Positions 1 through 37,702 of a stretch of DNA of 37,702 nucleotides are shown in pieces. Below the pieces are notes generated by a model. That model saw nothing but the letters and a program-made list of their open reading frames with translations, was not told the origin of the DNA and made no database searches. Origin of the DNA: a virus; the IMG/VR virus record IMGVR_UViG_3300012931_000011, positions 1 through 37,702 of that record. One strand, written 5' to 3'. The translations under genes were made by a program, and so were the position numbers. Each line of letters starts with the position of its first letter. Within the stretch, counting starts at the first letter, position 1.

Positions 1-123
1 GCAGAACTACCAGCTGCATCTTTTATAGTGAATATCCTGCTTGTTGTAGGTGCATTAGGAAGGTTGATGGTTACAGCTATTGAACTTGTATCTACACCAA
101 GAAATTGATCACCAGCAGCGACA
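1..123. repeat. Terminal overlap identical to 37580-37702 (circular closure or terminal redundancy; unique length 37,579 bp)
   Basis: Read directly: gcagaactaccagctgcatc...caccagcagcgaca occurs at both window ends. Confidence 0.95.
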
Positions 124-362
124 ACATAGGGTGATGAAGAAACTGGTGTATAGGTAGGATATCCATATGAAGGAGTGACCCACGTTGGTAATGCACCAGC
201 ACCTTGTGAGGATAGAACTTGCCCAGCAGTTCCTACACTCGCCACAGACTGAAAAGCGCCAACTGAAGTAGCCCCTCCGCAAAGGACTGAAAAAGCTGTG
301 GCAGATTGGACGCCACTGCCGCCTTCTACTACTGGTTCTGGACTATTGCGTTTATAAGCCAT
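1..362 (-). CDS. Fibre-like protein, N-terminal part of a gene that wraps the window junction (continues 37579->37450; 163 aa in total)
   Basis: ATG at 362 preceded by taGGAGAGtata. Open to base 1 and in frame through the overlap: 362+130 = 492 nt. Carries GTAGQVLSSQGAGALPTW, a motif shared with the 32270-34842 paralogues. Confidence 0.7.
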   Translation of the reverse strand, partial: MAYKRNSPEPVVEGGSGVQSATAFSVLCGGATSVGAFQSVASVGTAGQVLSSQGAGALPTWVTPSYGYPTYTPVSSSPYVVAAGDQFLGVDTSSIAVTINLPNAPTTSRIFTIKDAAGSS

Positions 363-371
363 TATACTCTC

Positions 372-842
372 CTAGAAAATTTCATAATTTGTTCCATTAA
401 ACACTAATGAAACTGATTGATATGTTGAATTCATCGTATAGATAGCAGCACCATCTATGAGCGCTATCCCTGAAACGGTAGTGACTGTAATATTATTAGT
501 ATTAGCAGTCCCTGATCTATCTTTGATGACAAATAACCTATTTATACTTGTAGTATCTGGTAATTGGATAGTTATAGGTGCAGCTGTATTAACAGATAAG
601 TAATAATCTGTATCTAAGACTACATAAGGTGTTGTAGATACATTGGTATATTTGAACAACAAAGGTAGCGCTTCTATAGATATAGTAGCAGTACCTGAGT
701 CACCTACTGTTATTACAGAAGTACCGTCACCACTGATATTTATATTATTAGATAGAGGTGAAACTACATCACCTTGATCAGGTGTTAACGTATAAGTTGT
801 TGCTGGCGAAGTACCTGTAACAAAAGAACCTGCTTGTGACAT
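372..842 (-). CDS. Small fibre/receptor-binding-like protein, paralogue of the wrap-around gene
   Basis: SD taAGGAGataagATG. The C-terminus ...ITIQLPDTTSINRLFVIKDRSGTANTNNITVTT...LVFNGTNYEIF parallels ...VTINLPNAPTTSRIFTIKDAAGSSATHNITVTT...LIFNGTSYEIY of the neighbouring gene. Confidence 0.7.
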   Translation of the reverse strand: MSQAGSFVTGTSPATTYTLTPDQGDVVSPLSNNINISGDGTSVITVGDSGTATISIEALPLLFKYTNVSTTPYVVLDTDYYLSVNTAAPITIQLPDTTSINRLFVIKDRSGTANTNNITVTTVSGIALIDGAAIYTMNSTYQSVSLVFNGTNYEIF

Positions 843-11332: not shown

Positions 11333-11968
11333 TTACGATAGGGTTGCCCTGAGATTGGTGATCCATAAATCATTCAATATTCGAGGGACCTCTGCGAATA
11401 CATATCCTAAGGTAACGTTTTGGAACAATGGGTCACTGTACACAGCAGGACGATAGAGGAACCGTGCTGAATAATTGTCCTGTTCAACGCACGCCAATGA
11501 TTCCATCCCCTGAACAATGATTGAATAGACATCATTGCCAAGTGCAGATGCGTTTGGCGTGATTGCGCCTTGTGAAGACAGCATGAAACGGCAGTTATTG
11601 ACCGATCCCCACTCTGATCTCAAGACATTGTTTTCAGATGGATAATTCCATTTTGAAACAAAACCATTTATATTATTCAATTCTTTTGATAATCTTGTGT
11701 GCCCTAATGCCAAATAGGAATCCCTTACTGGGCCTGTGCCGAAGCGGTCCTCGCCTTCAATATTATCCAATATCATGAATGCATCGTTTGTAAGCAATGC
11801 AGATGTAACTTCATCAATGTCAGATAAAGATAAATTTGTTGGCGTATCGCCGTTTACTCCGCCAACACAGTTAACCATACCAGCTGTTGCTGTGAGCATA
11901 TCACGAGTGAGCTGATCTTCTGTCATACGCAATGATAGCCCTAAAAGTTCGGCTGTTTCATTGAGAAC
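11333..11968 (-). CDS. Capsid exon 4 (C-terminal 211 aa)
   Basis: In frame with ORF 11333..11971. The apparent ATG at 11969-11971 is the intron 3 terminus ...AGAAUG. Confidence 0.75.
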   Translation of the reverse strand, partial: VLNETAELLGLSLRMTEDQLTRDMLTATAGMVNCVGGVNGDTPTNLSLSDIDEVTSALLTNDAFMILDNIEGEDRFGTGPVRDSYLALGHTRLSKELNNINGFVSKWNYPSENNVLRSEWGSVNNCRFMLSSQGAITPNASALGNDVYSIIVQGMESLACVEQDNYSARFLYRPAVYSDPLFQNVTLGYVFAEVPRILNDLWITNLRATLS

Positions 11969-14364
11969 CATTCTGTTACTTTATGACCTATCTCTAGGCG
12001 GGGAAACTTCTTCGAATCTCCCTCACTACCTTATCGTGTAGTGTTCAGACTATCGCATACCATTTCTGGTTCTTTTCGTTTAGTCGTTCAGCCTGGACTA
12101 GCAATTCTGCTTCGTGTATAATTATATAGTATAATTGTTTAAATTTAATGAGGATTTCATGGGAAAAACACGAAGACAATATTATAAAAGATCTAAAGAT
12201 TATATTCCGCAACAATACAAATCTACTGATTTGGCTTATATGGCAGGAATTGTTGATGGAGAAGGATGTTTTTATATTGGCAAAGTTCCCAAAAAAGCTG
12301 GAGATGGATATGTTTCCGAACATTATCGAGGTCTTTTGAAAATTGATAATACCAATCAAAGATTGATAAATTGGATTGATAATGTTTTTAGCGGTACTGC
12401 ATCTGCTCGCTGCAGAACAACTTCCAGCAAAAAATTTGAGCGCGATATTTTTACATGGAATTCTACTGGAGATCGACTGCTTGATATATGCGAACAGCTG
12501 TTGCCATACCTTGTTATAAAAAAAGAACAATGCGAAATCATGATTAAGTTTAGAAAAACATACAATGCATCGCTGGGAAGTCATGTGCTTCCTATGGGCG
12601 CACTTGAATCTAGACAGCAGTGTTTGGAAGAAATTCGTAAACTTAATTCGCGATGGCATTTACATCCTTTGAAAAATATTTAAATCCTAGTCCTTGGCCC
12701 TTGTTACCGGTTAGCTAATTGCTACTTCGGACTTCAAGTCAATTAGAAAAGATTTATAGACCCCATACTTTTTAGGGTCTTGGTTCTGTAGTGTACATTA
12801 TTCTGTTACTTTTATGACCTATTTCTAGGCGGGGACTTTCTCTACTTATCCCTCTCTAAGTTATCCCTAGAGTTCAGAGCACCGCATCCATGGGATCATT
12901 ATTATCTACATAAGGTATGTCAATTCCGCCGTTAGCCATTTTCTCTTTAATTTTTTTCGAACAAATATCGCAAAATTTTATAACAGTTTCTTGCTTACTG
13001 GATCTTGCAAATATAACTTTTAAAAGACATTTACTACATAGATAATTTTTTTTATTTCCCATAGTCTTCTCGCTTGCTACGTTCAGGCTGATTAGGAAAT
13101 GGGAAATCATCTTCATAAATCCAATGGGTTATTTCTTTTTCTATACCCCAATATTCGTCAATATTTACAAATAAATTAGATTTATTAGAGAATTTGTCTA
13201 CTCTGTAATCACCATGAAATAACTCATTGCTTTGTGAACAAAGAATTAATGGTTTGCTGATTTCAGGCATAACACTTTTTATATTATTCCATTTCATAAT
13301 CTTGCCCCTTGTCGCCGGTTAGTTGAATACCACTTCGGTTTCCAAGTCTATCAGAGAAGATTTAAAGCAGGCTACAATATTATTTTTAACCTGCTGGTTG
13401 ATAGCAACATACAATCCATAAAATGACATTGTTGCATCGATATCAACACGTGTTAAAGGTGTGGCTGGTGGTGTTGCCCCAGAAGGACCAAGAGGTACTG
13501 GTGCTGTAGGCAATCTATCATACCTAGCCATACGCAATGTACGACCACCTTTAGAAGGTAATCTTTTAGAGATAGCTCCGAGCTTGTAAATCAAATTAGG
13601 TGTTCTTACCGATAGTAAGATATCATCCATAGTTTGCTGGACCATTCTATTACTTTATGACCTGTTGCCAGGCGGGTAGTCATTTCTGCTACCTCTTATA
13701 GTTTCCTATAAGATTGGATCATCGCATACCTTCTCAGGTCCTCGAGGCTTGATCTCTGCGCCTACTTTATTAGCATTAAGCTCTCGCATCTTTTGATACG
13801 CTTGCTCACGATAATTTAACTCGTTTTCAGTTAACCTAATATGCCTTTGGCCAATATCTTTATAATTACCTTTTTCACAAAATTCCAACAAATGTAATGC
13901 TCTTTCTTTTTTATTGTGTAAATAGGGCAATATCCCATGCAAAAAAGTTAAAAGATCTTTTTTATTTGTTATACGCCATTCATATAAAGGTAAACTATTA
14001 GGTCTAGATTTACGAGTGCCACTGATTATTATGCTGCCCAATCCGGTTTCTTTTTTGATGTAATTGATAGAACCATTATTAATCATAGTTATCTTTACGC
14101 ACGGTAAATAATCATATCTATATTTTCTAAAATATTTACCAATCATAAAACATCCGTCAGAATCCATAATTGCTGCCGCATAAATCCAATGCGTTTGGCT
14201 CTGGTTATCTTGCATATCATATCCTTTATTATATTCAACACTTCCTGTGCGAGTATAGCAGAACGAACGTGATATGTTTAGACTTTCCATGTAATCACTC
14301 AAGGTTTAACGCGCCCTATCTCTCAAAAAGGCGCCGGGAGCGTAGTTGTAGTAGTTATTGGCAT
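11333..14364 (-). CDS. Major capsid protein (HK97-fold, N4-gp56-like family by recall), four exons: 14364-14329, 13642-13389, 12795-12774, 11968-11333
   Basis: Exon lengths sum to 36+254+22+636 = 948 nt, giving 315 aa plus stop with no frame break. Spliced product: MPITTTTTLPAP|VQQTMDD...YVAINQQV|TLQNQDP|VLNETAELLG...SDPLFQNVTLGYVFAEVPRILNDLW.... SD aAAGGAGtttagttATG at 14364. Confidence 0.8.
11969..12773 (-). mobile_element. Group I-like intron 3 (805 nt) of the capsid gene
   Basis: P1: exon AGACCCU pairs with intron GGGGUCU, with a G.U at the splice site. 3' end GGUCAUAAAGUAACAGAAUG. Candidate P7: GACUA (12085-12081, inside CUGAACGACUAAA, R-like) with UAGUC (12052-12048, inside GCGAUAGUC, S-like). 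A 7-bp stem (12095-12101 / 12687-12693) encloses the endonuclease gene. Confidence 0.75.
12159..12683 (+). CDS. LAGLIDADG homing endonuclease (single-motif, 174 aa), antisense to its host intron
   Basis: Motif LAYMAGIVDGEGCFYIG. SD aatGAGGAtttcATG. Two TATAAT boxes upstream at about 12115-12133. The overlapping minus-strand ORF 12045..12659 is low-complexity shadow. Confidence 0.85.
   Translation: MGKTRRQYYKRSKDYIPQQYKSTDLAYMAGIVDGEGCFYIGKVPKKAGDGYVSEHYRGLLKIDNTNQRLINWIDNVFSGTASARCRTTSSKKFERDIFTWNSTGDRLLDICEQLLPYLVIKKEQCEIMIKFRKTYNASLGSHVLPMGALESRQQCLEEIRKLNSRWHLHPLKNI
12774..12795 (-). CDS. Capsid exon 3: 22-nt micro-exon u|aca cua cag aac caa gac ccu, encoding (V)TLQNQDP
   Basis: Bounded by the intron 2 terminal G (12796) and the intron 3 5' splice-site U (12774). 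Needed to keep exons 2 and 4 in frame. Confidence 0.7.
12874..13062 (-). CDS. Small CxxC...CxxC zinc-ribbon-like ORF inside intron 2
   Basis: MGNKKNYLCSKC...KFCDICSKK. Start chosen at the internal ATG 13062. Its C-terminal codons overlap the conserved 3' block of the intron. Confidence 0.35.
   Translation of the reverse strand: MGNKKNYLCSKCLLKVIFARSSKQETVIKFCDICSKKIKEKMANGGIDIPYVDNNDPMDAVL
13052..13297 (-). CDS. DUF551-like small ORF inside intron 2
   Basis: MKWNNIKSVMPE...ITHWIYEDDFPFPNQPE resembles, by recall, the DUF551 pattern (W..v.d.lPe ... THWmplPepP). ATG directly follows the conserved 5' block of the intron. Confidence 0.45.
   Translation of the reverse strand: MKWNNIKSVMPEISKPLILCSQSNELFHGDYRVDKFSNKSNLFVNIDEYWGIEKEITHWIYEDDFPFPNQPERSKREDYGK
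13389..13642 (-). CDS. Capsid exon 2 (84 codons + 2 nt)
   Basis: Part of ORF 13319..13645. The ORF's leading ATG is the intron 1 terminus ...AGAAUG, and its tail ...KNNIVACFKSSLIDLETEVVFN is read-through into intron 2. Confidence 0.75.
13643..14328 (-). mobile_element. Group I-like intron 1 (686 nt) of the capsid gene
   Basis: P1: exon GCGCCU pairs with intron GGGCGC, with a G.U at the splice site. 3' end GGUCAUAAAGUAAUAGAAUG. Candidate P7: GAUCA (13754-13750) with UGAUC (13721-13717). The 3' block is homologous to introns 2 and 3. Confidence 0.7.
13706..14215 (-). CDS. LAGLIDADG homing endonuclease (single-motif, 169 aa), sense orientation in intron 1
   Basis: Motif WIYAAAIMDSDGCFMIGKY. 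ATG at 14215 preceded by aAAGGAtatgat. The C-terminal codons overlap the candidate ribozyme core. Confidence 0.8.
   Translation of the reverse strand: MQDNQSQTHWIYAAAIMDSDGCFMIGKYFRKYRYDYLPCVKITMINNGSINYIKKETGLGSIIISGTRKSRPNSLPLYEWRITNKKDLLTFLHGILPYLHNKKERALHLLEFCEKGNYKDIGQRHIRLTENELNYREQAYQKMRELNANKVGAEIKPRGPEKVCDDPIL
14329..14364 (-). CDS. Capsid exon 1 (MPITTTTTLPAP)
   Basis: Strong SD and ATG. The frame hits a stop 2 codons after the proposed splice site. Confidence 0.7.
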
Positions 14365-14416: not shown

Positions 14417-14513
14417 GGACGAAGCTCGATACGTCCTAGCACGGCGAACACCTATACGCCGTTAGAGTATCAGACTCATGGCTGTCGGCACGGCGAACAC
14501 CTATACGCCGTTA
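14417..14513 (-). promoter_or_regulatory. Capsid mRNA leader with three stem-loops, two of them identical 26-nt copies (14439-14464 and 14488-14513)
   Basis: Minus-sense ACGGCG-uauagguguu-CGCCGU occurs twice, and GGACG-uaucgagcuu-CGUCC once (14417-14436). All three have 10-nt loops of the form UAUnGnnnUU. Confidence 0.6.
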
Positions 14514-23355: not shown

Positions 23356-23428
23356 AAAACAATAGCTCAGCGGTTAGAGCATCAGCCTGTTAAGCTGAAG
23401 GTTATTGGTTCAAATCCAATTTGTTTTT
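23356..23428 (+). tRNA. trnN: tRNA-Asn (GUU) with an almost all-A/U acceptor stem
   Basis: Manual cloverleaf: AAAACAA / UA / GCUC-AGCGGUUA-GAGC / A / UCAGC-CUGUUAA-GCUGA / AGGUU / AUUGG-UUCAAAU-CCAAU / UUGUUUU / U. No encoded CCA. Confidence 0.75.
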
Positions 23429-23662
23429 CAAGAATAGCCTTTATAACGCTAGTCTTTTGAAATCTATCAAGATTAAAGTTTGAAGATTTAATTTTTAAGA
23501 TTTAAAAGCGGCAAGTTAATAAGTAGCAAGAGAGCAAGGAGATGCCGATATTATCATCGGAATGACCTAGAAAAGTTTTTTTGTATATTTATATGGTCTT
23601 TCTAGGGTTCCTGTATAGGCAATGCTATCGCGAATAAGATAATAATTGGTGTTACAATTTAC

Positions 23663-23878: not shown

Positions 23879-23953
23879 TGGCTCCCCGGCTAGGATTCGA
23901 ACCTAGGACCACTCGCTTAACAGGCGATCGCTCTACCACTGAGCTACCGGGGA
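23879..23953 (-). tRNA. trnN: tRNA-Asn (GUU), canonical bacterial type with encoded CCA
   Basis: Manual cloverleaf: UCCCCGG / UA / GCUC-AGUGGUA-GAGC / G / AUCGC-CUGUUAA-GCGAG / UGGUC / CUAGG-UUCGAAU-CCUAG / CCGGGGA / G / CCA. Confidence 0.9.
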
Positions 23954-28737: not shown

Positions 28738-29133
28738 TTAAAAAGGATTCTCTTCAAAGCTTTTTTGATGGAAAGCATCAAGTTCACTATTTATATTCAT
28801 CTCTTTTGTGAACTCATCTGCTTGCGGCAACTCTAATGAGGTTATTTTATCAGCAGTTACTGAAGTAAACATCATATCTCCACCAGTTTTAACGCTTTTT
28901 ACTGTCCTGCATCTTATCCTTCCCTCTACAAGAATCGTTGCGCCTAGGCCAATTTTGTTCGCCTCTTCTAACGACTTGCCCCATAAACTGATTTCTAAGT
29001 AATTATCAGTTAACTTCCCTGAAATAGTTTGAGGGCAGTTGATAACTATGGTTCCTATCGCAGTACCATTATTAAGTTTTTTAGTAGTAGCTGGTTTTGT
29101 GATTGTACCAATTAACATAACTCTATTTAACAT
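28738..29133 (-). CDS. ssb: Single-stranded DNA-binding protein
   Basis: OB-fold-like N-terminus MLNRVMLIGTITK...LEISLWGK...ILVEGRI and an acidic tail ending EENPF. Confidence 0.75.
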   Translation of the reverse strand: MLNRVMLIGTITKPATTKKLNNGTAIGTIVINCPQTISGKLTDNYLEISLWGKSLEEANKIGLGATILVEGRIRCRTVKSVKTGGDMMFTSVTADKITSLELPQADEFTKEMNINSELDAFHQKSFEENPF

Positions 29134-29713
29134 CGCTAGCCCTTCTTGGTTGCGCTTTAATATAATTTAATACATTATCAAGTTCACTTTCTGGGAGATC
29201 ATCTATTTTATTTATTTTATGTTGTTGCAAGATCGAATTGAATATTTCTTTAGAATCTTTGCATTTCTTGAGCTCTTCTATAACAACATTTATTTGTTCT
29301 TTATCAATAAGGCTGAATTCCTCGCCTCCCAGCCCGCATAGACACAAAAGCGCCCCTTTTCTCGCATATGTTGTTCCACTATCCCTGCTTTGGTTAGTAC
29401 CTTTTTCATTAATATTATAACGAGTATCATGTACCCATTGTCCTGACAAAGAATGCCGCATCCGTGTACAAACTATTTCAGCACCATCTGACGAGAAGCA
29501 TATAGAATGTTGTACCGATATATTATTTTTGCCTAACTCTTCTATGCACGCATCATAGATACTAGTAATACTGGCATAATAACCAAAATTACCCTTGGTA
29601 TCTTTTACAGGATTCTTCATATTTAGCCTGGCTTTAATAAAAGCCTTATCAAATTCCCTCGTATCATCAGAACAAAATGTGCAATTGTTCTTTGTAAATG
29701 TATCTTCCATCAA
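29123..29713 (-). CDS. erf: ERF-family single-strand annealing protein
   Basis: FDKAFIKARLNMKNPVKDTKG..YYASITSIYDACIEELGKNNISVQ...HSLSGQW...GTTYARKGALLCLCGL fits the ERF pattern. Confidence 0.7.
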   Translation of the reverse strand: MMEDTFTKNNCTFCSDDTREFDKAFIKARLNMKNPVKDTKGNFGYYASITSIYDACIEELGKNNISVQHSICFSSDGAEIVCTRMRHSLSGQWVHDTRYNINEKGTNQSRDSGTTYARKGALLCLCGLGGEEFSLIDKEQINVVIEELKKCKDSKEIFNSILQQHKINKIDDLPESELDNVLNYIKAQPRRASDVK

Positions 29714-30981: not shown

Positions 30982-31665
30982 ATGTTAGAAAATTTGCCTT
31001 TTAATCCTTATAGATCTGAAGCTGTAGATAAAGTATTTGGTGCATTAAGCAAAGCGCAAGGTACCTATAAAAAACCTCAATTAGATATGAAAAGTATTAG
31101 GGGACACTATAGTTCTTTATCTGCAATATTAGATTCTACTAGAGAAGCATTAGATGCTAATGGACTATCGTTTACGCAGAATACTTATTTGCTCGATGAA
31201 GGGTCTGGGGCAAAGTTGCTTATCAGCACATTAGGACACGAATCTGGGCAATATCTAGGAAGCTGCGAAAGAGTTGTTATAGGCAAGACTAAAAGGAGAA
31301 CAGGGAACTTATTAGAAACTGATAAAAGGTTACAAGCTTCTATGTTATTAGGCGTTGCCCCATCTTACTGTGACCCTTTCGCATTTGATGATGATGGCCA
31401 AGAAGTTGATGATGAAGAAGCTGCTGAGTCTGTCCGAAGAGGGAAAATAAAAATAGAAGATCCTACTGATACTATAAATACAACACAATATAATGAACTT
31501 TGCAGTGAACTTGAAGGGTACCCTGAATTGGCTGAGAATATAATAGAAAGCTATAATATTGACAGTTTATCTGATCTACCACGTGAAGAATATCATAAAG
31601 CTTGCGCTAGAATAAGAAAGATAAAAAAGGCTCAAGATGAATATAACCAAAGGAAAAATACTTGA
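30982..31665 (+). CDS. Second ERF-like protein (divergent paralogue of 29123..29713)
   Basis: VDKVFGALSKAQGTYKKPQLD...HYSSLSAILDSTREALDANGLSFTQ...GHESGQY parallels the N-terminal ERF block. The C-terminus ...YNIDSLSDLPREEY parallels ...HKINKIDDLPESEL. Confidence 0.6.
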   Translation: MLENLPFNPYRSEAVDKVFGALSKAQGTYKKPQLDMKSIRGHYSSLSAILDSTREALDANGLSFTQNTYLLDEGSGAKLLISTLGHESGQYLGSCERVVIGKTKRRTGNLLETDKRLQASMLLGVAPSYCDPFAFDDDGQEVDDEEAAESVRRGKIKIEDPTDTINTTQYNELCSELEGYPELAENIIESYNIDSLSDLPREEYHKACARIRKIKKAQDEYNQRKNT

Positions 31666-31871: not shown

Positions 31872-31913
31872 TGATTTAACTCTGCTTATACGATAATTCC
31901 AGTTATCGTGTGT

Positions 31914-31946
31914 CCCTTACCTATCTTAGGTGAGGGATTTTGTTTT
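31914..31946 (+). terminator. Rho-independent terminator CCCUUACCU-aucuu-AGGUGAGGG followed by AUUUUGUUUU
   Basis: Read directly after the last rightward gene. Confidence 0.65.
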
Positions 31947-32030: not shown

Positions 32031-32058
32031 CAGTACAGCACCATACGGCACTGTACTG
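32031..32058. terminator. Inverted repeat CAGTACAG-12 nt-CTGTACTG between the convergent operons
   Basis: Read directly. Lies just downstream of the minus-strand gene ending at 32084. Confidence 0.4.
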
Positions 32059-32083: not shown

Positions 32084-32257
32084 CTATTTTTCAGGACTTT
32101 TGGGAGTAAGATCTATATCGTGTCCTGTTTCATTTTTTATTACTTGTTCAGCAGCTTCTTCAACTTGGTTATCATCGCCCATTTTAAATATGTAAGTTGA
32201 TGATAATCCTATAGCAGCAGCTAGTGCTGCAACAGCGACTTGTACCCATGTAAGCAT
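32084..32257 (-). CDS. 57-aa single-TM protein (holin-like candidate), not in the ORF track
   Basis: My translation: MLTWVQVAVAALAAAIGLSSTYIFKMGDDNQVEEAAEQVIKNETGHDIDLTPKSPEK. Strong SD aAAGGAGtacgtatATG. Confidence 0.55.
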   Translation of the reverse strand: MLTWVQVAVAALAAAIGLSSTYIFKMGDDNQVEEAAEQVIKNETGHDIDLTPKSPEK

Positions 32258-32269
32258 ATACGTACTCCT

Positions 32270-33160
32270 TTATAATGGTTTTAATAAACAACCTGTTATA
32301 TAACTCGTTATGAATCCATCTTGTGGACCATTTATTTTTAAGAATGACCACCATGTAGAAGGTGAATCAAAAAATGGACCATATACTATTCCAAAACGTA
32401 CATTAGTATTCTGATCAGCTTCAAAAATACACACAGCATCCATAGAATATTGGATATTCTGATAGCTATTTATAGAGCTAGGTCTATATGCAAAATCAAC
32501 TACTTCTGTTGTAGATTGGCCGCTTGGAAAAATCGTTTCAAGTCTACATGTCTGATTGTAGTATACTGAAGGATCACTAGGCAACCCATGTATAGGGAAC
32601 GGTAACGCTGAAAGTACTTCTAGATGTACACAAAAGAAATATATACCATGCACAGCGGTAACATAATATGAATTTATCATGTCCCAACAATGGAATGGAT
32701 CATAATATATATTTGTTGCTTCTAGATACGTAGTCCCTCGAATATCAGTATCTTCACCATCACAGCCAACAAGAACCCCATAATTTGTTCCAACAGCATC
32801 TTGCCAGGTAGGTAATTGATTAGGGCCATTTGATGTTAAAAATTGTTCTAGAGTACCGGTATTTACCACATTCTGTAACGAAGAAACTTGCGTAGTCCCG
32901 CCGCATAAAACAGTATAAATAGGCGCTAATTCTGTCATTCCAGTTCCACCACCAGGTACTGTCGCAGGTCCAAAAGCTGGATTATGATTTATCCCTAACG
33001 AAATTAATGGTGCTCCAGCAGTATGCGAAGGAGCTATAAGTGAAACTGCTCCTATATCATTACCAACTAAGACATTATGGTTCGTTAATGAAACTTGTCC
33101 TGTTCCTCCACGTTCAACTTGGGCTGGATTTTGTGAGTTCCATGCGTTATTTGTTGCCAT
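32270..33160 (-). CDS. Fibre/receptor-binding protein with C1q/TNF-like C-terminal head (trio member A)
   Basis: N-terminus MATNNAWNSQNPAQVERGGTG.... C-terminus ...DTDIRGT..YYDPFHCWDMINSYYVTAVHGIYFFCVHLEV...TNVRFGIV. TAATG coupling. Confidence 0.7.
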   Translation of the reverse strand: MATNNAWNSQNPAQVERGGTGQVSLTNHNVLVGNDIGAVSLIAPSHTAGAPLISLGINHNPAFGPATVPGGGTGMTELAPIYTVLCGGTTQVSSLQNVVNTGTLEQFLTSNGPNQLPTWQDAVGTNYGVLVGCDGEDTDIRGTTYLEATNIYYDPFHCWDMINSYYVTAVHGIYFFCVHLEVLSALPFPIHGLPSDPSVYYNQTCRLETIFPSGQSTTEVVDFAYRPSSINSYQNIQYSMDAVCIFEADQNTNVRFGIVYGPFFDSPSTWWSFLKINGPQDGFITSYITGCLLKPL

Positions 33161-33984
33161 TATGTTCCAATCATTATAAAGCCTGATAGAAAGCTCGACA
33201 TAGGTGAAACTGTATCCAATAACCCTGCATTCAGCCCACCGAATCCTGAAACCATAAGCGAAGGGTAAACAATATCACCCGTATTCAATATAAAAGTGCA
33301 GTTACATACTAATGTATAACCACTCGTAGCTGGTGGAATCACAACATCTTGCAAATATCCTCTATATCCTGAAGAAGGGCCGTTTAGACGCGCCTGGAAC
33401 ACACAGTCTGCTGTACTTGCTATATTTAACGATAAAGTTACCTGTAACGAAAAATAAAATAATCCGTTACGTGGCGCTACAAATTGAGAATTAACAGTGT
33501 CCCAGACAGTATTATCATTACACGTTGTAGATTGGAATATAATATGATAATCAGTACCATTACCGGTTACTGTTTCTTGGCCACCAGCGACATTATTATA
33601 AGCAAAAAAAGAAAATTGCCCGAAAGAATTATCAGTCCAACTAGGGTAAGAACCTGGCCCATTTGAAGTTAATATTTGTCCTGCTACCCCAGGCCCTACA
33701 TCATGAACAGCACCATGGGCAGTTGTCCCTGAACATATAGGACTAAAAGGCGTATAGGTAGTTGTTCCAGTTCCGCCACCCTGTACTTGCATAGTTCCAA
33801 AAACAGGATCATTCAGTAACCCTTGGCTTACTAATGGTATCCCAGCAGCGCCAGGTGCTACAAAACCAGCAGGGTTTACTCCCTGGCCTACAATGACATT
33901 ATGATTAGCTAATGTAGTATTACCAGTACCACCTTTAGCTACTTGAGCTGGATTTTGGCTGTTCCATGCATTATTTGTTGCCAT
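33160..33984 (-). CDS. Fibre/receptor-binding protein with C1q/TNF-like C-terminal head (trio member B)
   Basis: MATNNAWNSQNPAQVAKGGTG...GQILTSNGPGSYPSW... then FSFFAY..VTGNGTDYHIIFQ...NSQFVAPRNGLFYFSLQV...LNTGDIVY. F.AP..G.Y.F is the C1q signature. Confidence 0.75.
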   Translation of the reverse strand: MATNNAWNSQNPAQVAKGGTGNTTLANHNVIVGQGVNPAGFVAPGAAGIPLVSQGLLNDPVFGTMQVQGGGTGTTTYTPFSPICSGTTAHGAVHDVGPGVAGQILTSNGPGSYPSWTDNSFGQFSFFAYNNVAGGQETVTGNGTDYHIIFQSTTCNDNTVWDTVNSQFVAPRNGLFYFSLQVTLSLNIASTADCVFQARLNGPSSGYRGYLQDVVIPPATSGYTLVCNCTFILNTGDIVYPSLMVSGFGGLNAGLLDTVSPMSSFLSGFIMIGT

Positions 33985-33993
33985 CTTATCCTC

Positions 33994-34842
33994 CTAGAAC
34001 CGTGATATTAAACAGCCATTTATATAGCTTGAATAAGCGTCGCCCATTACAACTTTACCCCCGAATCCATCAGCCATAAAAGAGAAATAAATAATATCAT
34101 TAGCATTAGCTTTGACAATTGCATTTATAAGCAACGCTCTGCTTGTATCAGTTTCATAAGTACTTTGTGGTATAGGATATTGGTCGTATGAATACAACGT
34201 CTGAACACCATGCAACCTCAATTGATATTGCACATTAGAAGGATCTGGAGTTCCTAGAGCCGCTCCTGAAAAATAAACTTTAACAGAGAACCAGAAAAGA
34301 CCGTTAACAGGTGCTTTCCATTGGCTATTTGTTAAATCCCATACATTACCATAATTTGACCAAACGAATGCAGGATCAGTTTGTGTTAACCGCACATCAG
34401 TACCATCACCTGTAGCATTTGCTGCTAATACAGCAGTCACTCTAAACAAATAGTTCCCACGTCCTTCAGCAGTACCAGCACTACCTAGATCTTGCCATGA
34501 AGGCCAAGTTGTTCCGTTTGAGGTAAGTACTTGCCCTGCTATCCCTGTAGTATCTATACAATGGAGCTTTGCTGTAGCAGTATCGCCAGAACAAAGAACA
34601 GAATAAGGTACTGTAATTTGTAATCCAGTTCCGCCACCAACAACTTCTGCTGTATCAAAACTTGGATCAACAGCAGCACCATTACTTACTAACGGTACAC
34701 CATGCACTAATGTAGGTTGTGCAAAGCTCACAGGATTTGCTCCCTGACCTACGATAACATGATAAGCTGTGAGATTATTCTGCCCAGTTCCGCCACGTGC
34801 AACCTGAGCTGGATTTTGGCTGTTCCATGCGTTATTTGTCAT
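33994..34842 (-). CDS. Fibre/receptor-binding protein with C1q/TNF-like C-terminal head (trio member C)
   Basis: MTNNAWNSQNPAQVARGGTG...GQVLTSNGTTWPSW... then ATGDGTDVRL...NSQWKAPVNGLFWFSVKV...ANANDIIY. Confidence 0.75.
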   Translation of the reverse strand: MTNNAWNSQNPAQVARGGTGQNNLTAYHVIVGQGANPVSFAQPTLVHGVPLVSNGAAVDPSFDTAEVVGGGTGLQITVPYSVLCSGDTATAKLHCIDTTGIAGQVLTSNGTTWPSWQDLGSAGTAEGRGNYLFRVTAVLAANATGDGTDVRLTQTDPAFVWSNYGNVWDLTNSQWKAPVNGLFWFSVKVYFSGAALGTPDPSNVQYQLRLHGVQTLYSYDQYPIPQSTYETDTSRALLINAIVKANANDIIYFSFMADGFGGKVVMGDAYSSYINGCLISRF

Positions 34843-34843
34843 A

Positions 34844-36190
34844 TTAAGCCACCGTTATATTACCTATTGAATAATCAACAAAAAAGCTTGTATTAGCTAC
34901 CATACATACTATATGGACTACATCATGAGTACTTGTTGATTCAAGATAACCACCAAGTCCTGTTGTTGTCTGTTGGTCCCCAAAATATATGGTCTGTCCT
35001 GCATTATGGTTAATACGCCACCCATAATTATTATTCATCCCTGTGACAGCAAAGACATCGCCAACAGCAGCTGTTATAGGCAATGTGAACACAGTCTGTA
35101 CAGCATTATTAGCTATATAACCGTTCATAGTTACTAAAGCTACTGCTGCTGATGTAGTCTGTTGCCAAGCGAATCCAACAGGAACAGGACCTACGTAAGA
35201 TACAGTAACTGTATGCGATGTAGCATCACCTTCAGTATGTATATAGGTACCATCGCCAATAACATTCCAGTTCCCGTTACTATCAGCTGGTACTACAACA
35301 GCATCACCGGTAGTTATAGTCTGCCCTAATGTTCCAGGACCTGTACCATTAACAGATAATTTCAGTGTATTACCACCGCCTGAAATAAAAGATAAAGCTG
35401 GTAAATTAGTATCAGTTACAAGATTGAGGTTGCCGGTTATATCAGAAGCTACAGGTATAGTGTCATCACCTGTTAATGTCTCTATATAACCGTTACCACT
35501 TGCTGAAGTGAGGACAAGAGTAGAAACGGGTGCAGCATTCTCAACAACAGTAAGACCAGGGATAGTTGAGATTATCCCTATATCGCCGTTTGTTGGAGTT
35601 ACTTGTATAGAGTTGCTACCAGATAAAGTTTGTAGAACAGAACCAGGTCCTGTCCCGGTAAAATCAAAGTCTAATGTATATGGTGCAGCCCCTGTAGAAG
35701 TAAACTTAAACGCAGCTATCTTAGAATTTATTTTGATGATATTTGTTGCAGGATCAGATGAAACTGCTGCTGAACCGTCACTACCTTGTAGCTTAGTTAT
35801 CAGATTTCCGCCACCGGCTGCTGTTAATGTTAAAGTGTGTGCAGTACTATTGCCTTGAACATCTAATCCGCCAATAGAACTAAATAAATTTATATTATCA
35901 TTAGTATCGCCAGATACAGGGTTAGTACCTGTTGTACCTGTTAGTGTCTGTACGCCTACACCACCATTACCGTGGATCCATGTTGCCTTAGCACCTTTAG
36001 AAGTAGTTGTTCCCTGCAACGAAACAAGAGCCCATAAGGTTAGCGTAGCAGTATTTATCCAGATATCACCAATCGAATAGTTAATATCATATTGATCAGG
36101 ATCACGCGTAGCATACACCATGTTTGGTGGCTGATTAGCATTTGTTCCTAGATATGCAGTACCTTGTTTACCGCCTAATCTGTTGCTCAT
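34844..36190 (-). CDS. Tail fibre protein with five tandem internal modules of about 45 aa
   Basis: Modules begin QTLTGTTG, TKLQGSDG, QTLSGSNS, ETLTGDDT and QTITTGDA. N-terminus RDPDQYD..IGDIWIN. The C-terminal domain resembles the 372..842 family (LPITAAVGDVFAVTG...). Confidence 0.75.
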   Translation of the reverse strand: MSNRLGGKQGTAYLGTNANQPPNMVYATRDPDQYDINYSIGDIWINTATLTLWALVSLQGTTTSKGAKATWIHGNGGVGVQTLTGTTGTNPVSGDTNDNINLFSSIGGLDVQGNSTAHTLTLTAAGGGNLITKLQGSDGSAAVSSDPATNIIKINSKIAAFKFTSTGAAPYTLDFDFTGTGPGSVLQTLSGSNSIQVTPTNGDIGIISTIPGLTVVENAAPVSTLVLTSASGNGYIETLTGDDTIPVASDITGNLNLVTDTNLPALSFISGGGNTLKLSVNGTGPGTLGQTITTGDAVVVPADSNGNWNVIGDGTYIHTEGDATSHTVTVSYVGPVPVGFAWQQTTSAAVALVTMNGYIANNAVQTVFTLPITAAVGDVFAVTGMNNNYGWRINHNAGQTIYFGDQQTTTGLGGYLESTSTHDVVHIVCMVANTSFFVDYSIGNITVA

Positions 36191-36483
36191 ATTACTATCT
36201 CTTCATCTCGCTGTTTACGTGATTTATAGTTCGCTTGACTGAATACTAACGTAGCATATTCATCAGGATCTGTAGGTATAGTAGTAACCCCATTCTCAAT
36301 AAGTTTAGAGTCCCATTCTTGTTTTAATCTGGTGAAACTTTGATCATATTTTTGTGTTATGACCCATTCTAGTCTACGGTCCATATCATCAGAAAAAATA
36401 TCTTCATTGATATCATTTTTAATTACATTTTCACGCACTGTTGACAGTGTGAATATCTCTGTATCATTTACTGAAACTTTCAT
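36187..36483 (-). CDS. Hypothetical protein (98 aa), possible fibre assembly factor
   Basis: ATGA overlap with the fibre gene. Acidic. Assignment is by position only. Confidence 0.5.
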   Translation of the reverse strand: MKVSVNDTEIFTLSTVRENVIKNDINEDIFSDDMDRRLEWVITQKYDQSFTRLKQEWDSKLIENGVTTIPTDPDEYATLVFSQANYKSRKQRDEEIVI

Positions 36484-36493
36484 ATTTCTCCTT

Positions 36494-37441
36494 TTAAGCT
36501 ACGAGCCACCCACCGAACCACGATCGTGGATCAGTTGAACCACCACCATTCAAATCTACTATTTTTGTACCACCATCAACCTGAATTACCACATACGCTG
36601 TATCACTAGCATCCATATCAACAAAGAACGATGCAGTTGTAGAATATTGGCTTGTAGATACTACTTGAACATAAGGGTTACATTGATGCGTAAGATAGGT
36701 TCTATTAGAAGTAACAAGCGATATATACATAGAAGTATGCGATGAGCCTATATCTATTAACATGATACCTACATCAAAATGATATAGCCCAGTAACAGGT
36801 GCTGTAAATGTAGTTGAACTGAAATTGCTCCCTCTATCAAAGACTTCGCTGTTCCATACGCATGTATACGCAGTACCATCACCAGTCACATCAGCAACAG
36901 CAGAAGTACGGATAGCTAGAAAAGAAGGTTGTAATGGTTTAGTCACAGGACCGGTAGAATCAAAATTTATTAAAGTCCCTGTAGCACTTTGCACATAAGA
37001 ACTACCAGTTCCACAAAAAATATGTGTATATGAAGCGCCTGTTTTTGAACCTAAATTAAGAGACTTTGCAGCAAGACCACTTGCTATGTAAACAAGAGTT
37101 GCTGAATTATCGCTTGATATTTCGACTTGACCTGTCCCAGAGTTAAATTTTAATGTACCGCCAGCTGTTGTTATTGAGGCTGGACCAGTGGCAGTAGCGT
37201 TTATTCCTCCAGCTCCAGCAATTATATTTGTTGTTGAACTTGTATAAGATGTACCAAAAGTACATGTTCTAGGAGCATTACCAGTACCTACATTAACAGT
37301 TGCAGCATTTGCATCTGTACTCAAATTTATATCACCATTATTAGCAGTGATACCAGCAAATGACATGGTAGTAGCATTAGCACCAGTTGATGTGAAACTA
37401 GCGCCAGTTGTACCTCCAGAAATAGTATTTCTATATGCCAT
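36494..37441 (-). CDS. Fibre protein with Gly/Thr/Ser-rich shaft and C1q/TNF-like head
   Basis: ...SFLAIRTSAVADVTGDGTAYTCVWNSEVFDRGSNFSSTTFTAPVTGLYHFDVGI...DASDTAYVVIQV. Confidence 0.75.
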   Translation of the reverse strand: MAYRNTISGGTTGASFTSTGANATTMSFAGITANNGDINLSTDANAATVNVGTGNAPRTCTFGTSYTSSTTNIIAGAGGINATATGPASITTAGGTLKFNSGTGQVEISSDNSATLVYIASGLAAKSLNLGSKTGASYTHIFCGTGSSYVQSATGTLINFDSTGPVTKPLQPSFLAIRTSAVADVTGDGTAYTCVWNSEVFDRGSNFSSTTFTAPVTGLYHFDVGIMLIDIGSSHTSMYISLVTSNRTYLTHQCNPYVQVVSTSQYSTTASFFVDMDASDTAYVVIQVDGGTKIVDLNGGGSTDPRSWFGGWLVA

Positions 37442-37449
37442 AATGCACC

Positions 37450-37702
37450 TTAATAAATTTCGTAAGAAGTACCATTAAAGATAAGGTTAATACTTTGATA
37501 ATTGGTATTTACGGTATAGCTTGTAGCGCCATCGATAGTGACTGAACCACCTACAGTAGTGACTGTTATATTATGAGTAGCAGAACTACCAGCTGCATCT
37601 TTTATAGTGAATATCCTGCTTGTTGTAGGTGCATTAGGAAGGTTGATGGTTACAGCTATTGAACTTGTATCTACACCAAGAAATTGATCACCAGCAGCGA
37701 CA
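37450..37702 (-). CDS. C-terminal part of the wrap-around fibre-like gene (same gene as 1..362)
   Basis: My translation: ...ATHNITVTTVGGSVTIDGATSYTVNTNYQSINLIFNGTSYEIY, with the stop at 37450-37452. Confidence 0.7.
   Translation of the reverse strand, partial: VAAGDQFLGVDTSSIAVTINLPNAPTTSRIFTIKDAAGSSATHNITVTTVGGSVTIDGATSYTVNTNYQSINLIFNGTSYEIY
37580..37702. repeat. Second copy of the 123-bp terminal overlap
   Basis: Identical to 1-123. Confidence 0.95.

Follow-up and report, generated by a model that had tools for sequence, protein, structure and literature searches.

Why should one phage genome hold three adjoining genes that start with the same peptide and end in different domains? The question is raised by positions 32270-34842 of a 37,702-nucleotide stretch of viral DNA (IMG/VR virus record IMGVR_UViG_3300012931_000011, the whole of which is here called the window), where three genes, named P1, P2, and P3, lie on the minus strand with all reading frames intact. 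The answer favored here, with a probability of about 0.72, is that P1-P3 are long-established paralogues that encode short receptor-binding fibers of a lytic podovirus-like phage, which would be displayed together and would share a plug and a stalk but differ in their C1q heads.

P1 (34842..33994, 282 amino acids), P2 (33984..33160, 274 amino acids), and P3 (33160..32270, 296 amino acids) follow one another closely; an original prediction, made by reading the nucleotide letters and their translations, had placed three adjoining genes at this span, and the intact frames and tight junctions bear this out. Just 1 nt lies between the TAA stop of the upstream gene, which encodes a 448-residue protein, and the P1 start codon (ATG); 9 nt, including GGAGG, lie between the stop of P1 and the ATG of P2 (cTAGGAGGATAAGATG); and the stop of P2 and the ATG of P3 share 1 nt (TAATG). 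In a database of 5.8 billion sequences, P2 matches P1 with E=2.4e-43 and P3 with E=3.8e-30, so the paralogy of the three is far beyond chance. Each protein consists of an invariant plug of 14-15 residues, two stalk repeats of about 50 residues each, and a head of 150-170 residues; pairwise identity is 52-58% in the N-modules (plug and stalk) and 26-33% in the heads. All three proteins had been expected to share the same first 110 residues or so; the shared N-module is there, but only its first 14-15 residues are invariant. Similarly, the 5' DNA motif quoted for the three genes is found in P2 and P3, which both open with ATGGCAACAAATAA, but P1 starts with ATGACAAAT and lacks the GCA codon for Ala2, so that its protein begins MTNNAWNS.

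The plug (N-terminal peptide NT1) has the sequence (M)(A)TNNAWNSQNPAQV, common to P1, P2, and P3. It comprises residues 1-14 of P1 (34801-34842) and residues 1-15 of both P2 (33940-33984) and P3 (33116-33160), at the start of N-modules that occupy 34495..34842, 33637..33984, and 32804..33160, respectively. Position 2 of the plug is Ala, Pro, Val, or Thr in homologues, or is absent. Methionine aminopeptidase specificity is such that Ala, Pro, Val, and Thr at position 2 permit removal of the initiator Met; because all of the residues seen at this position are compatible with the enzyme, the Met is probably removed, leaving (X)TNNAWNSQNPAQV exposed as the mature N-terminal end. Synonymous differences in the first 16 codons amount to 0.33-0.48 per site, with no amino acid changes in the first 14-15 residues, and Ser8 is encoded by AGC in two of the genes (P1 and P2) and by TCA in P3. 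Synonymous divergence of this size without amino acid change, together with the Ser8 codon switch, shows that long-term selection acts on the plug as a peptide and not on its DNA, and that the DNA has not been homogenized. The overall synonymous divergence (dS) of about 0.8-1.3 indicates that the duplicates are old, and nonsynonymous divergence (dN) is lower than dS in the N-modules. The plug has no counterpart in Pfam, PHROG, NCBIfam, or the PDB.

The stalk is beta-rich, and its repeat has the consensus GGTG-x-(V/I)x(C/V)G...G-x-GQ(V/I)LTSNG-x3-P-x-W over about 50 residues. A hidden Markov model (HMM) made from the single-repeat proteins of other phages detects two repeats in P1 (residues 15-62, 34657-34800, 21.0 bits; residues 69-116, 34495-34638, 43.2 bits) and two in P3 (residues 17-61, 32978-33112, 8.4 bits; residues 71-119, 32804-32950, 56.0 bits). 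In P2 the second repeat is canonical (residues 70-116, 33637-33777, 47.5 bits), and of the divergent first repeat (33796-33939) only the start is detected. There is no model of the repeat in Pfam, PHROG, or NCBIfam, no relative of solved structure was found by sequence in the PDB, and the stalks of the trio contain no Gly-X-Y collagen-like run. In a library of 1.84 billion proteins, a profile of the whole protein, stalk plus head, matched 9,551 cluster representatives at E values up to 0.001; the matches with the highest scores have many stalk copies, with up to 29 matched stretches at profile positions of about 15-130. The N-modules of the trio are no closer to one another than to those of other phages. 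N-module similarity was also considered as evidence of shuffling and was discounted, since about 55% identity is equally expected from a saturated, old, and constrained module.

The heads of P1 (residues 124-280, 34003..34473), P2 (residues 123-272, 33169..33618), and P3 (residues 124-294, 32279..32791) had been predicted to be C1q/TNF-type jelly rolls, with structure prediction and profile search named as the way to check the fold. Pfam, HMM, and AlphaFold/Foldseek results all bear on P2. In the Pfam scan, P2 scored 21.4 bits against C1q (PF00386; E=3e-4), which is under the gathering cut-off of 23.7 bits, and neither P1 nor P3 gave a match to this family; the homologues P0014 and P0136, which align over the whole head, exceed the cut-off with 40.4 and 33.8 bits. 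A profile of 29 family members matches the gC1q domain of cerebellin-1 at E=1e-10 over profile positions 123-274, and also matches adiponectin, C1QL2/3, C1q A/B/C, and collagen X. An independent head HMM, from which the proteins of the window and their closest relatives had been left out, gives 61.1 bits for P2 and 35.1 bits for P1. In phmmer comparisons the P1 head matches the P2 head at 1.4e-14 and P0014, one of the homologues that pass the Pfam cut-off, at 3.7e-6; the P1 head is assigned to the C1q type by homology to P2.

The AlphaFold monomer of P2 has a head with a predicted local distance difference test score (pLDDT) of about 60-95, and its 26 best Foldseek matches in the PDB are all gC1q domains, with template modeling (TM) scores of 0.72-0.80 and E of about 6e-9; among them are C1QL3 (0.79, E=7e-9), Caprin-2 (0.78), and the C1q B chain (0.72). 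In BFVD the same model matches 'C1q domain containing protein [uncultured Caudovirales phage]' at E=2.7e-13. The P3 monomer is modeled as a complete jelly roll with a head pLDDT of about 50-87 and an insertion near residues 260-271; C1QL1 and C1QL3 are its best matches (TM 0.68-0.82, E 1.4e-5 to 7e-5), followed by the TNF-family proteins 4-1BBL, EDA, and TNF. As modeled, then, the heads of P2 and P3 are C1q/TNF jelly rolls, that of P3 being divergent. The gC1q core motif F-x-A-P-x-x-G-x-Y-x-F and the C-terminal (F/I)-S-G-(F/Y)-L appear as FVAPRNGLFYF and LSGFIM in P2, as WKAPVNGLFWF and INGCLI in P1, and in degenerate form as YVTAVHGIYFF and ITGCLL in P3; the three head motifs quoted earlier were all found (FVAPRNGLFYFSLQV in P2, WKAPVNGLFWFSVKV in P1, and YVTAVHGIYFFCVHL in P3). 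P1 and P2 belong to a head subgroup with L001-221 and P0138, and P3 has no close partner anywhere. One-to-one pairing of the heads in the window with those of L001, the closest relative, was attempted and left P3 unmatched. Foldseek also matched P2 to the cyanophage A4 fiber gp24 (9k09_A) over 250 columns, but with a root-mean-square deviation of 13.8 A; the published architecture of that fiber, comprising a head-binding domain, a helical stem, and a carbohydrate-binding domain, is different, and gp24 was not accepted as a meaningful relative. A separate homologue, P0009, has a Pfam Pgp3_N match below the cut-off.

Related phages show how the plug is used outside the window. It is borne, with no more than three substitutions, by 50 retrieved proteins from uncultivated phages known from metagenomes, and the C-terminal 105 residues of these proteins fall into 13 BLAST clusters. 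By our own grouping of the sequences, the clusters would represent at least five head classes: the C1q type and those ending in '...F.LYGI', '...GNITVA', '...(V/I)TE(V/Y)', and '...AVR(I/V)'. A further class, the glycine-rich PF21722, is found on stalk-bearing relatives with other N-termini. The number of copies varies as well. The closest relative (L001), which is syntenic throughout and has a large terminase 73% identical to that of the window, carries two plug-bearing genes with one stalk repeat each at the position of the trio, and most other loci have a single plug-bearing gene. L020 has a tandem pair with heads of a class other than C1q, and L032 (contig SDBT01029983.1, 50-2252) has an overlapping trio of 242, 245, and 247 residues with '...LYGL' heads, in which the N-modules are visibly far more conserved than the heads and overall identity to the first copy is 56-60%. 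In L014 (6879-8731), three tandem genes carry a second tag, MAYKRISPTPIVEGGT (the MAYKR tag). Arrays of plug-sharing paralogues thus appear, from these sequences, to be a recurring trait of the clade. The original prediction of one attachment module fused to alternative heads holds across the family, with the same plug on about 50 proteins that carry at least five unrelated head classes, and its cassette holds on the evolutionary scale, where heads vary and a phage has one, two, or three copies. In GenBank phages, the 7.7-kb fiber region had no match by blastn, and no match was found by tblastn for P2, the 315-residue protein encoded nearby, a consensus plug-plus-repeat peptide, or a multi-repeat homologue of 1,184 residues, a result to which the low-complexity filter may contribute for the repeat queries.

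Two hallmarks of receptor-binding proteins (RBPs) are seen here: the trio lies in the late structural module beside other fiber genes, and across relatives the N-terminal part is conserved and the C-terminal part is variable. Under the favored reading, the three genes would be transcribed together with the other fiber genes that close the late operon, and would be linked in translation; because of this, the three fibers would be made together and are likely to be displayed on one particle. Each fiber is presumably trimeric and would occupy the same kind of attachment site through the common plug, which would dock into a conserved socket on the virion, since an invariant plug implies a conserved socket. 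The gC1q/TNF head of each would recognize a structure on the host surface, and three specificities on one virion could give a broader or hedged host range. Over evolution the plug and stalk would be kept, and the heads would be exchanged between phages or diverge after tandem duplication.

Several observations weigh against this account. The P3 head is unseen by every profile, whether that of Pfam or the independent head HMM, and its assignment depends on two weak phmmer links (1.9e-6 to P0003 and 6.6e-5 to P1) together with a model of medium confidence. The first 80 or so residues of P2 and P3, which include the plug, are modeled by AlphaFold at low confidence, with a pLDDT of 42-60. There was no significant match to an annotated tail-fiber family, the best being PHROG 31660 'tail fiber protein' with E=0.093 over residues 13-50 of P3, and the trio has no NCBIfam match and no GenBank phage match by tblastn. 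No prophage copy or plug-motif relative was found in 185,579 species-representative genomes of bacteria and archaea.

Where on the particle the fibers would sit is a question on which the neighboring genes have some bearing. The genome encodes at least eight fiber-like proteins with four or five N-terminal tags, unusually many for 37.6 kb and more than would normally be expected on a simple short tail. C1q heads are, moreover, general pattern-recognition modules, and P1-P3 could on these grounds be fibers that decorate the capsid or neck and provide general adhesion to surfaces, mucus, or non-host material, without being tail RBPs. This is unlikely, although it survives better than the other alternatives, because the trio lies inside the tail-fiber block at the end of the late operon, because published phage C1q-domain genes adjoin the tail fiber and are hypervariable in the manner of host-range determinants (PMC3909814), and because branched tail-fiber complexes do hold many RBPs (PMC8825819).

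Tail fibers could still be built from the three chains in more than one way. P1, P2, and P3 might co-assemble into one heterotrimeric fiber with a single three-chain C1q head, as a viral counterpart of complement C1q A/B/C; such a fiber would suit a set of exactly three tandem, translationally linked genes that have equal numbers of repeats, N-modules of near-equal length (116-119 residues), and C1q-type heads, and a second, independent trio of near-equal lengths exists in L032 (242, 245, and 247 residues). If this were so, the recurring trios and pairs of matched length would be hetero-oligomer sets and not independent fibers, and the unusual receptor-binding tip would derive combinatorial binding surfaces from few genes. 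However, most relatives have a single gene, so the module must be able to work as a homo-oligomer; two-gene arrays also exist (L001 and L020); and tandem duplication alone would give equal lengths. The heterotrimer is accordingly given only a slim chance, and three separate fibers with a common plug are preferred.

That only one copy functions, the other two being redundant or decaying duplicates, might be suggested by a P3 head too divergent for any profile, but it is very improbable. All three frames are intact with coupled starts; the plug is invariant although its codons differ by 0.33-0.48 per synonymous site; the N-modules have a dN below their dS; the model of P3 is still that of a complete jelly roll; and the duplicates have reached a dS of about 0.8-1.3 without decay.

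The 5' ends of the three genes had also been described as ready-made substrates for recombination, and this did not hold up: over the first 126 nt they are 65-72% identical in DNA, the longest exact shared runs are 26 nt (P1/P2), 18 nt (P1/P3), and 14 nt (P2/P3), and it is the peptide and not the DNA that is conserved. Crossing over at direct repeats would lead to the deletion or fusion of genes, not to an exchange of heads. The open reading frames scanned yielded no reverse transcriptase, invertase, or integrase domain, and no meaningful inverted repeats were found around the trio; in lacking a reverse transcriptase and an invertase among those frames, and flanking inverted repeats, the trio differs from programmed tail-fiber variation by diversity-generating retroelements or by the Gin system of phage Mu and the Cin system of phage P1. 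The P2 protein, too, is identical on all four of the four contigs that carry it. An active cassette that reshuffles heads within the genome during the life of the phage, by recombination of the 5' repeats or by a dedicated enzyme, is therefore scarcely credible, even though the 5' ends are direct repeats and two Erf-like single-strand annealing proteins are encoded.

With three co-displayed fibers as the preferred reading, the trio can be compared with known systems. The view that C1q heads are mostly an animal feature, as the original prediction had it, is outdated: putative RBPs with a C1q domain have been described adjoining the tail fiber in pelagiphage-like podoviruses (Mizuno et al. 2014, PMC3909814) and likewise in glacier phages (Bellas et al. 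2020, PMC7468147), and a search of BFVD returned many entries named 'C1q domain containing protein' from uncultured and Synechococcus phages. In the pelagiphage-like podoviruses, read recruitment from metagenomes was far better for the N-terminal end of these proteins than for their C1q domain (Mizuno et al. 2014, PMC3909814). Fibers of contractile injection systems also bear C1q domains (PMC12923769). The trio resembles the pelagiphage-like and glacier RBPs (PMC3909814, PMC7468147) in having a C-terminal C1q head beside tail-fiber genes, a conserved N-terminus, and a variable head, and the phage resembles the pelagiphage-like podoviruses in having a podovirus-sized genome and a large terminase 35-37% identical to those of the Pelagibacter phages HTVC100P, Greip, HTVC024P, and Skadi. 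Unlike those RBPs, the three proteins are encoded in tandem, have an invariant 15-residue tag followed by a two-repeat stalk, and have no GenBank phage sequence match.

Shared anchors are known from the adaptor-tailspike systems of SP6 and K1-5 and from Klebsiella phages that have several depolymerases with conserved N-terminal anchors. Branched complexes of multiple RBPs are formed by TSP1-4 of CBA120 and by gp63.1 and gp66 of G7C (PMC8825819). These have in common with the trio several RBPs per phage, conserved N-terminal attachment, and differing distal specificity, with several hosts and modular exchange. The anchors differ, being a short peptide with GGTG/GQVLTSNG repeats in the trio and T4 gp10-like XD2/XD3 domains in CBA120 and G7C, as do the heads, which are small lectin-like jelly rolls in the former and enzymatic beta-helix tailspikes in the latter. 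In the comparison with the docking domains of these phages, the sole match was a weak XD1-like one (E=0.015) in the 448-residue protein upstream of P1.

The three chains of vertebrate C1q come from three tandem genes (A, C, B). The trio is like them in consisting of three tandem paralogues with a conserved stalk and divergent heads, and is like them and other gC1q proteins (cerebellin, C1QL, adiponectin, and the NC1 domain of collagen VIII/X) in the head fold, the core motif, and the C-terminal ...SG(F/Y)L. It is unlike them in its non-collagenous stalk, in its identity of 10-21% to animal gC1q domains, and in its presumed role, which is virus attachment and neither immunity nor signaling. TNF/C1q-like knobs occur on the P5 spike of PRD1, the tail needle of Sf6, Bacillus BclA, and Chlamydia Pgp3, and Foldseek with the P2 model also returned the central-spike knob of Staphylococcus phage phi812 (9eul). 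All of these have a jelly-roll knob at the distal end of a fiber or spike, trimeric in their case; no sequence relationship of the trio to them was detected, and their stalks and attachment modules are different.

Multi-fiber phages with shared anchors, C1q-headed phage proteins, and the mix-and-match design of RBPs are already known, and the general understanding of phage host recognition is not changed by the trio. What is new is the sequence family, a plug and stalk that are abundant in metagenomes; tblastn finds them in no GenBank phage, and Pfam, PHROGs, NCBIfam, and the PDB have no annotation for them. Together with the head, these would make up a three-part RBP blueprint (15-residue plug, repeat of about 50 residues, and exchangeable head) that a whole clade of uncultivated podovirus-like phages employs. 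The plug could mark host-range genes in metagenomes and, if the socket is identified, the plug and socket could serve as a natural plug-and-play scaffold for phage retargeting.

The genome around the trio is complete: because the ends of the window share a perfect 123-nt duplication (1-123 = 37580-37702), it represents a circular genome of 37,579 bp. Among its products are a portal, a large terminase, a head protein, a tail-fiber-like protein, the two Erf-like annealing proteins, and RusA. The longest open reading frame has 726 codons' worth of protein (726 amino acids) and none is of tape-measure size, so a short-tailed (podovirus-like) phage fits. The large terminase shares 41% identity with its counterparts in uncultured freshwater-spring phages; the portal has only about 23% identity to anything among GenBank phages. 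The trio forms the 3' end of a minus-strand late structural operon that holds portal, head, and fiber-like genes. Across the circular junction, the order of the fiber block is the genes for the proteins of 156, 163, 315, 98, and 448 residues, then P1, P2, and P3; by an estimate from the coordinates, fiber-like genes take up roughly a fifth of the genome.

The 156-residue fiber-like protein (842..372, minus strand) has a conserved N-terminus, MSQAG..., which is also found with varied heads on the fiber-like homologues P0014, P0022, P0025, P0051, P0104, and P0112. The 163-residue fiber-like gene (minus strand) crosses the circular junction (362..1, then 37579..37450) and is cut by the window into a 5' part at 1..362 and a 3' part at 37450..37702, of which 37580-37702 duplicates 1-123; its product combines the second N-terminal tag (MAYKRNSPEPVVEGGSG) with a single stalk repeat and a '...YEIY' head. 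The presence of several short N-terminal tags in the clade suggests several classes of attachment site. The 315-residue protein (36494..37441, minus strand) is a fourth fiber-like protein with a C1q head (Pfam C1q E=6e-4, 20.4 bits, residues 193-314). This head matches 43 phage C1q-type heads, down to 3e-29, and is more canonical than those of P1-P3 (FTAPVTGLYHF ... FGGWLVA); its homologue in L001 is split into a protein of 682 residues and a head-only protein of 161 residues.

Between the fiber genes, a conserved protein of 98 residues is encoded (36187..36483, minus strand) that has homologues of 60-69% identity at the same position in L001 and L017-L019. It is kept although the flanking fiber genes differ fully, and in L018 it follows a fiber of 1,526 residues with a C1q-like end; it is a possible candidate for a fiber assembly factor. 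The 448-residue fiber-like protein (34844..36190, minus strand), whose gene is tightly coupled to P1, begins with a conserved N-terminus of its own, MSNRLGGKQGTAY..., and has a '...GNITVA' domain at its C-terminus. The last 110 or so residues of this protein gave a weak profile match to XD1 of CBA120 TSP4 (residues 79-125, E=0.015), and the role ascribed to XD1 is that of a spacer or glycan-binding fold, not of a docking domain (PMC8825819). In the window, as in all eight distinct related loci (L005, L008, L010-L014, and L016), a plug-bearing gene directly follows a '...GNITVA' gene. The domain may be a lead to the plug socket or, since some plug-bearing proteins have it as their head, may be no more than a further head class.

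Downstream of P3, the last gene of the operon (32084..32257, minus strand) encodes a protein of 57 residues with an N-terminal hydrophobic helix that is likely to be transmembrane. The late operon ends in a terminator-like hairpin with a 12-bp stem (32031..32058, minus strand), and a convergent terminator lies at 31912-31938 on the plus strand.

A few features elsewhere in the window are recorded for completeness. The two Erf-like single-strand annealing genes are divergent and on opposite strands, at 29123-29713 (minus) and 30982-31665 (plus). Two tRNA-Asn(GTT) genes, at 23356-23429 (plus) and 23879-23953 (minus), lie about 450 nt apart in a low-GC region between the terminase and portal blocks. 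In the region of the head genes, a 198-residue open reading frame (13706-14302, minus strand) has a sub-threshold match to LAGLIDADG homing endonucleases (E=5.6e-4; 21.2 bits, the cut-off being 23.1), and a perfect 26-nt direct repeat (14439-14464 and 14488-14513) lies near it. A conserved element of about 33 nt, CCCGCCTAGAAATAGGTCATAAAGTAACAGAATGG, occurs on the minus strand at 11967-12002, 12798-12833, and 13641-13676; it holds a small CCTA-GAAA-TAGG hairpin and may serve head-module genes as a phage-specific promoter or as a translational operator. Two copies lie immediately 5' of the genes that start at 11971 and 13645 and take in their ATG, and the third copy is near 12800.

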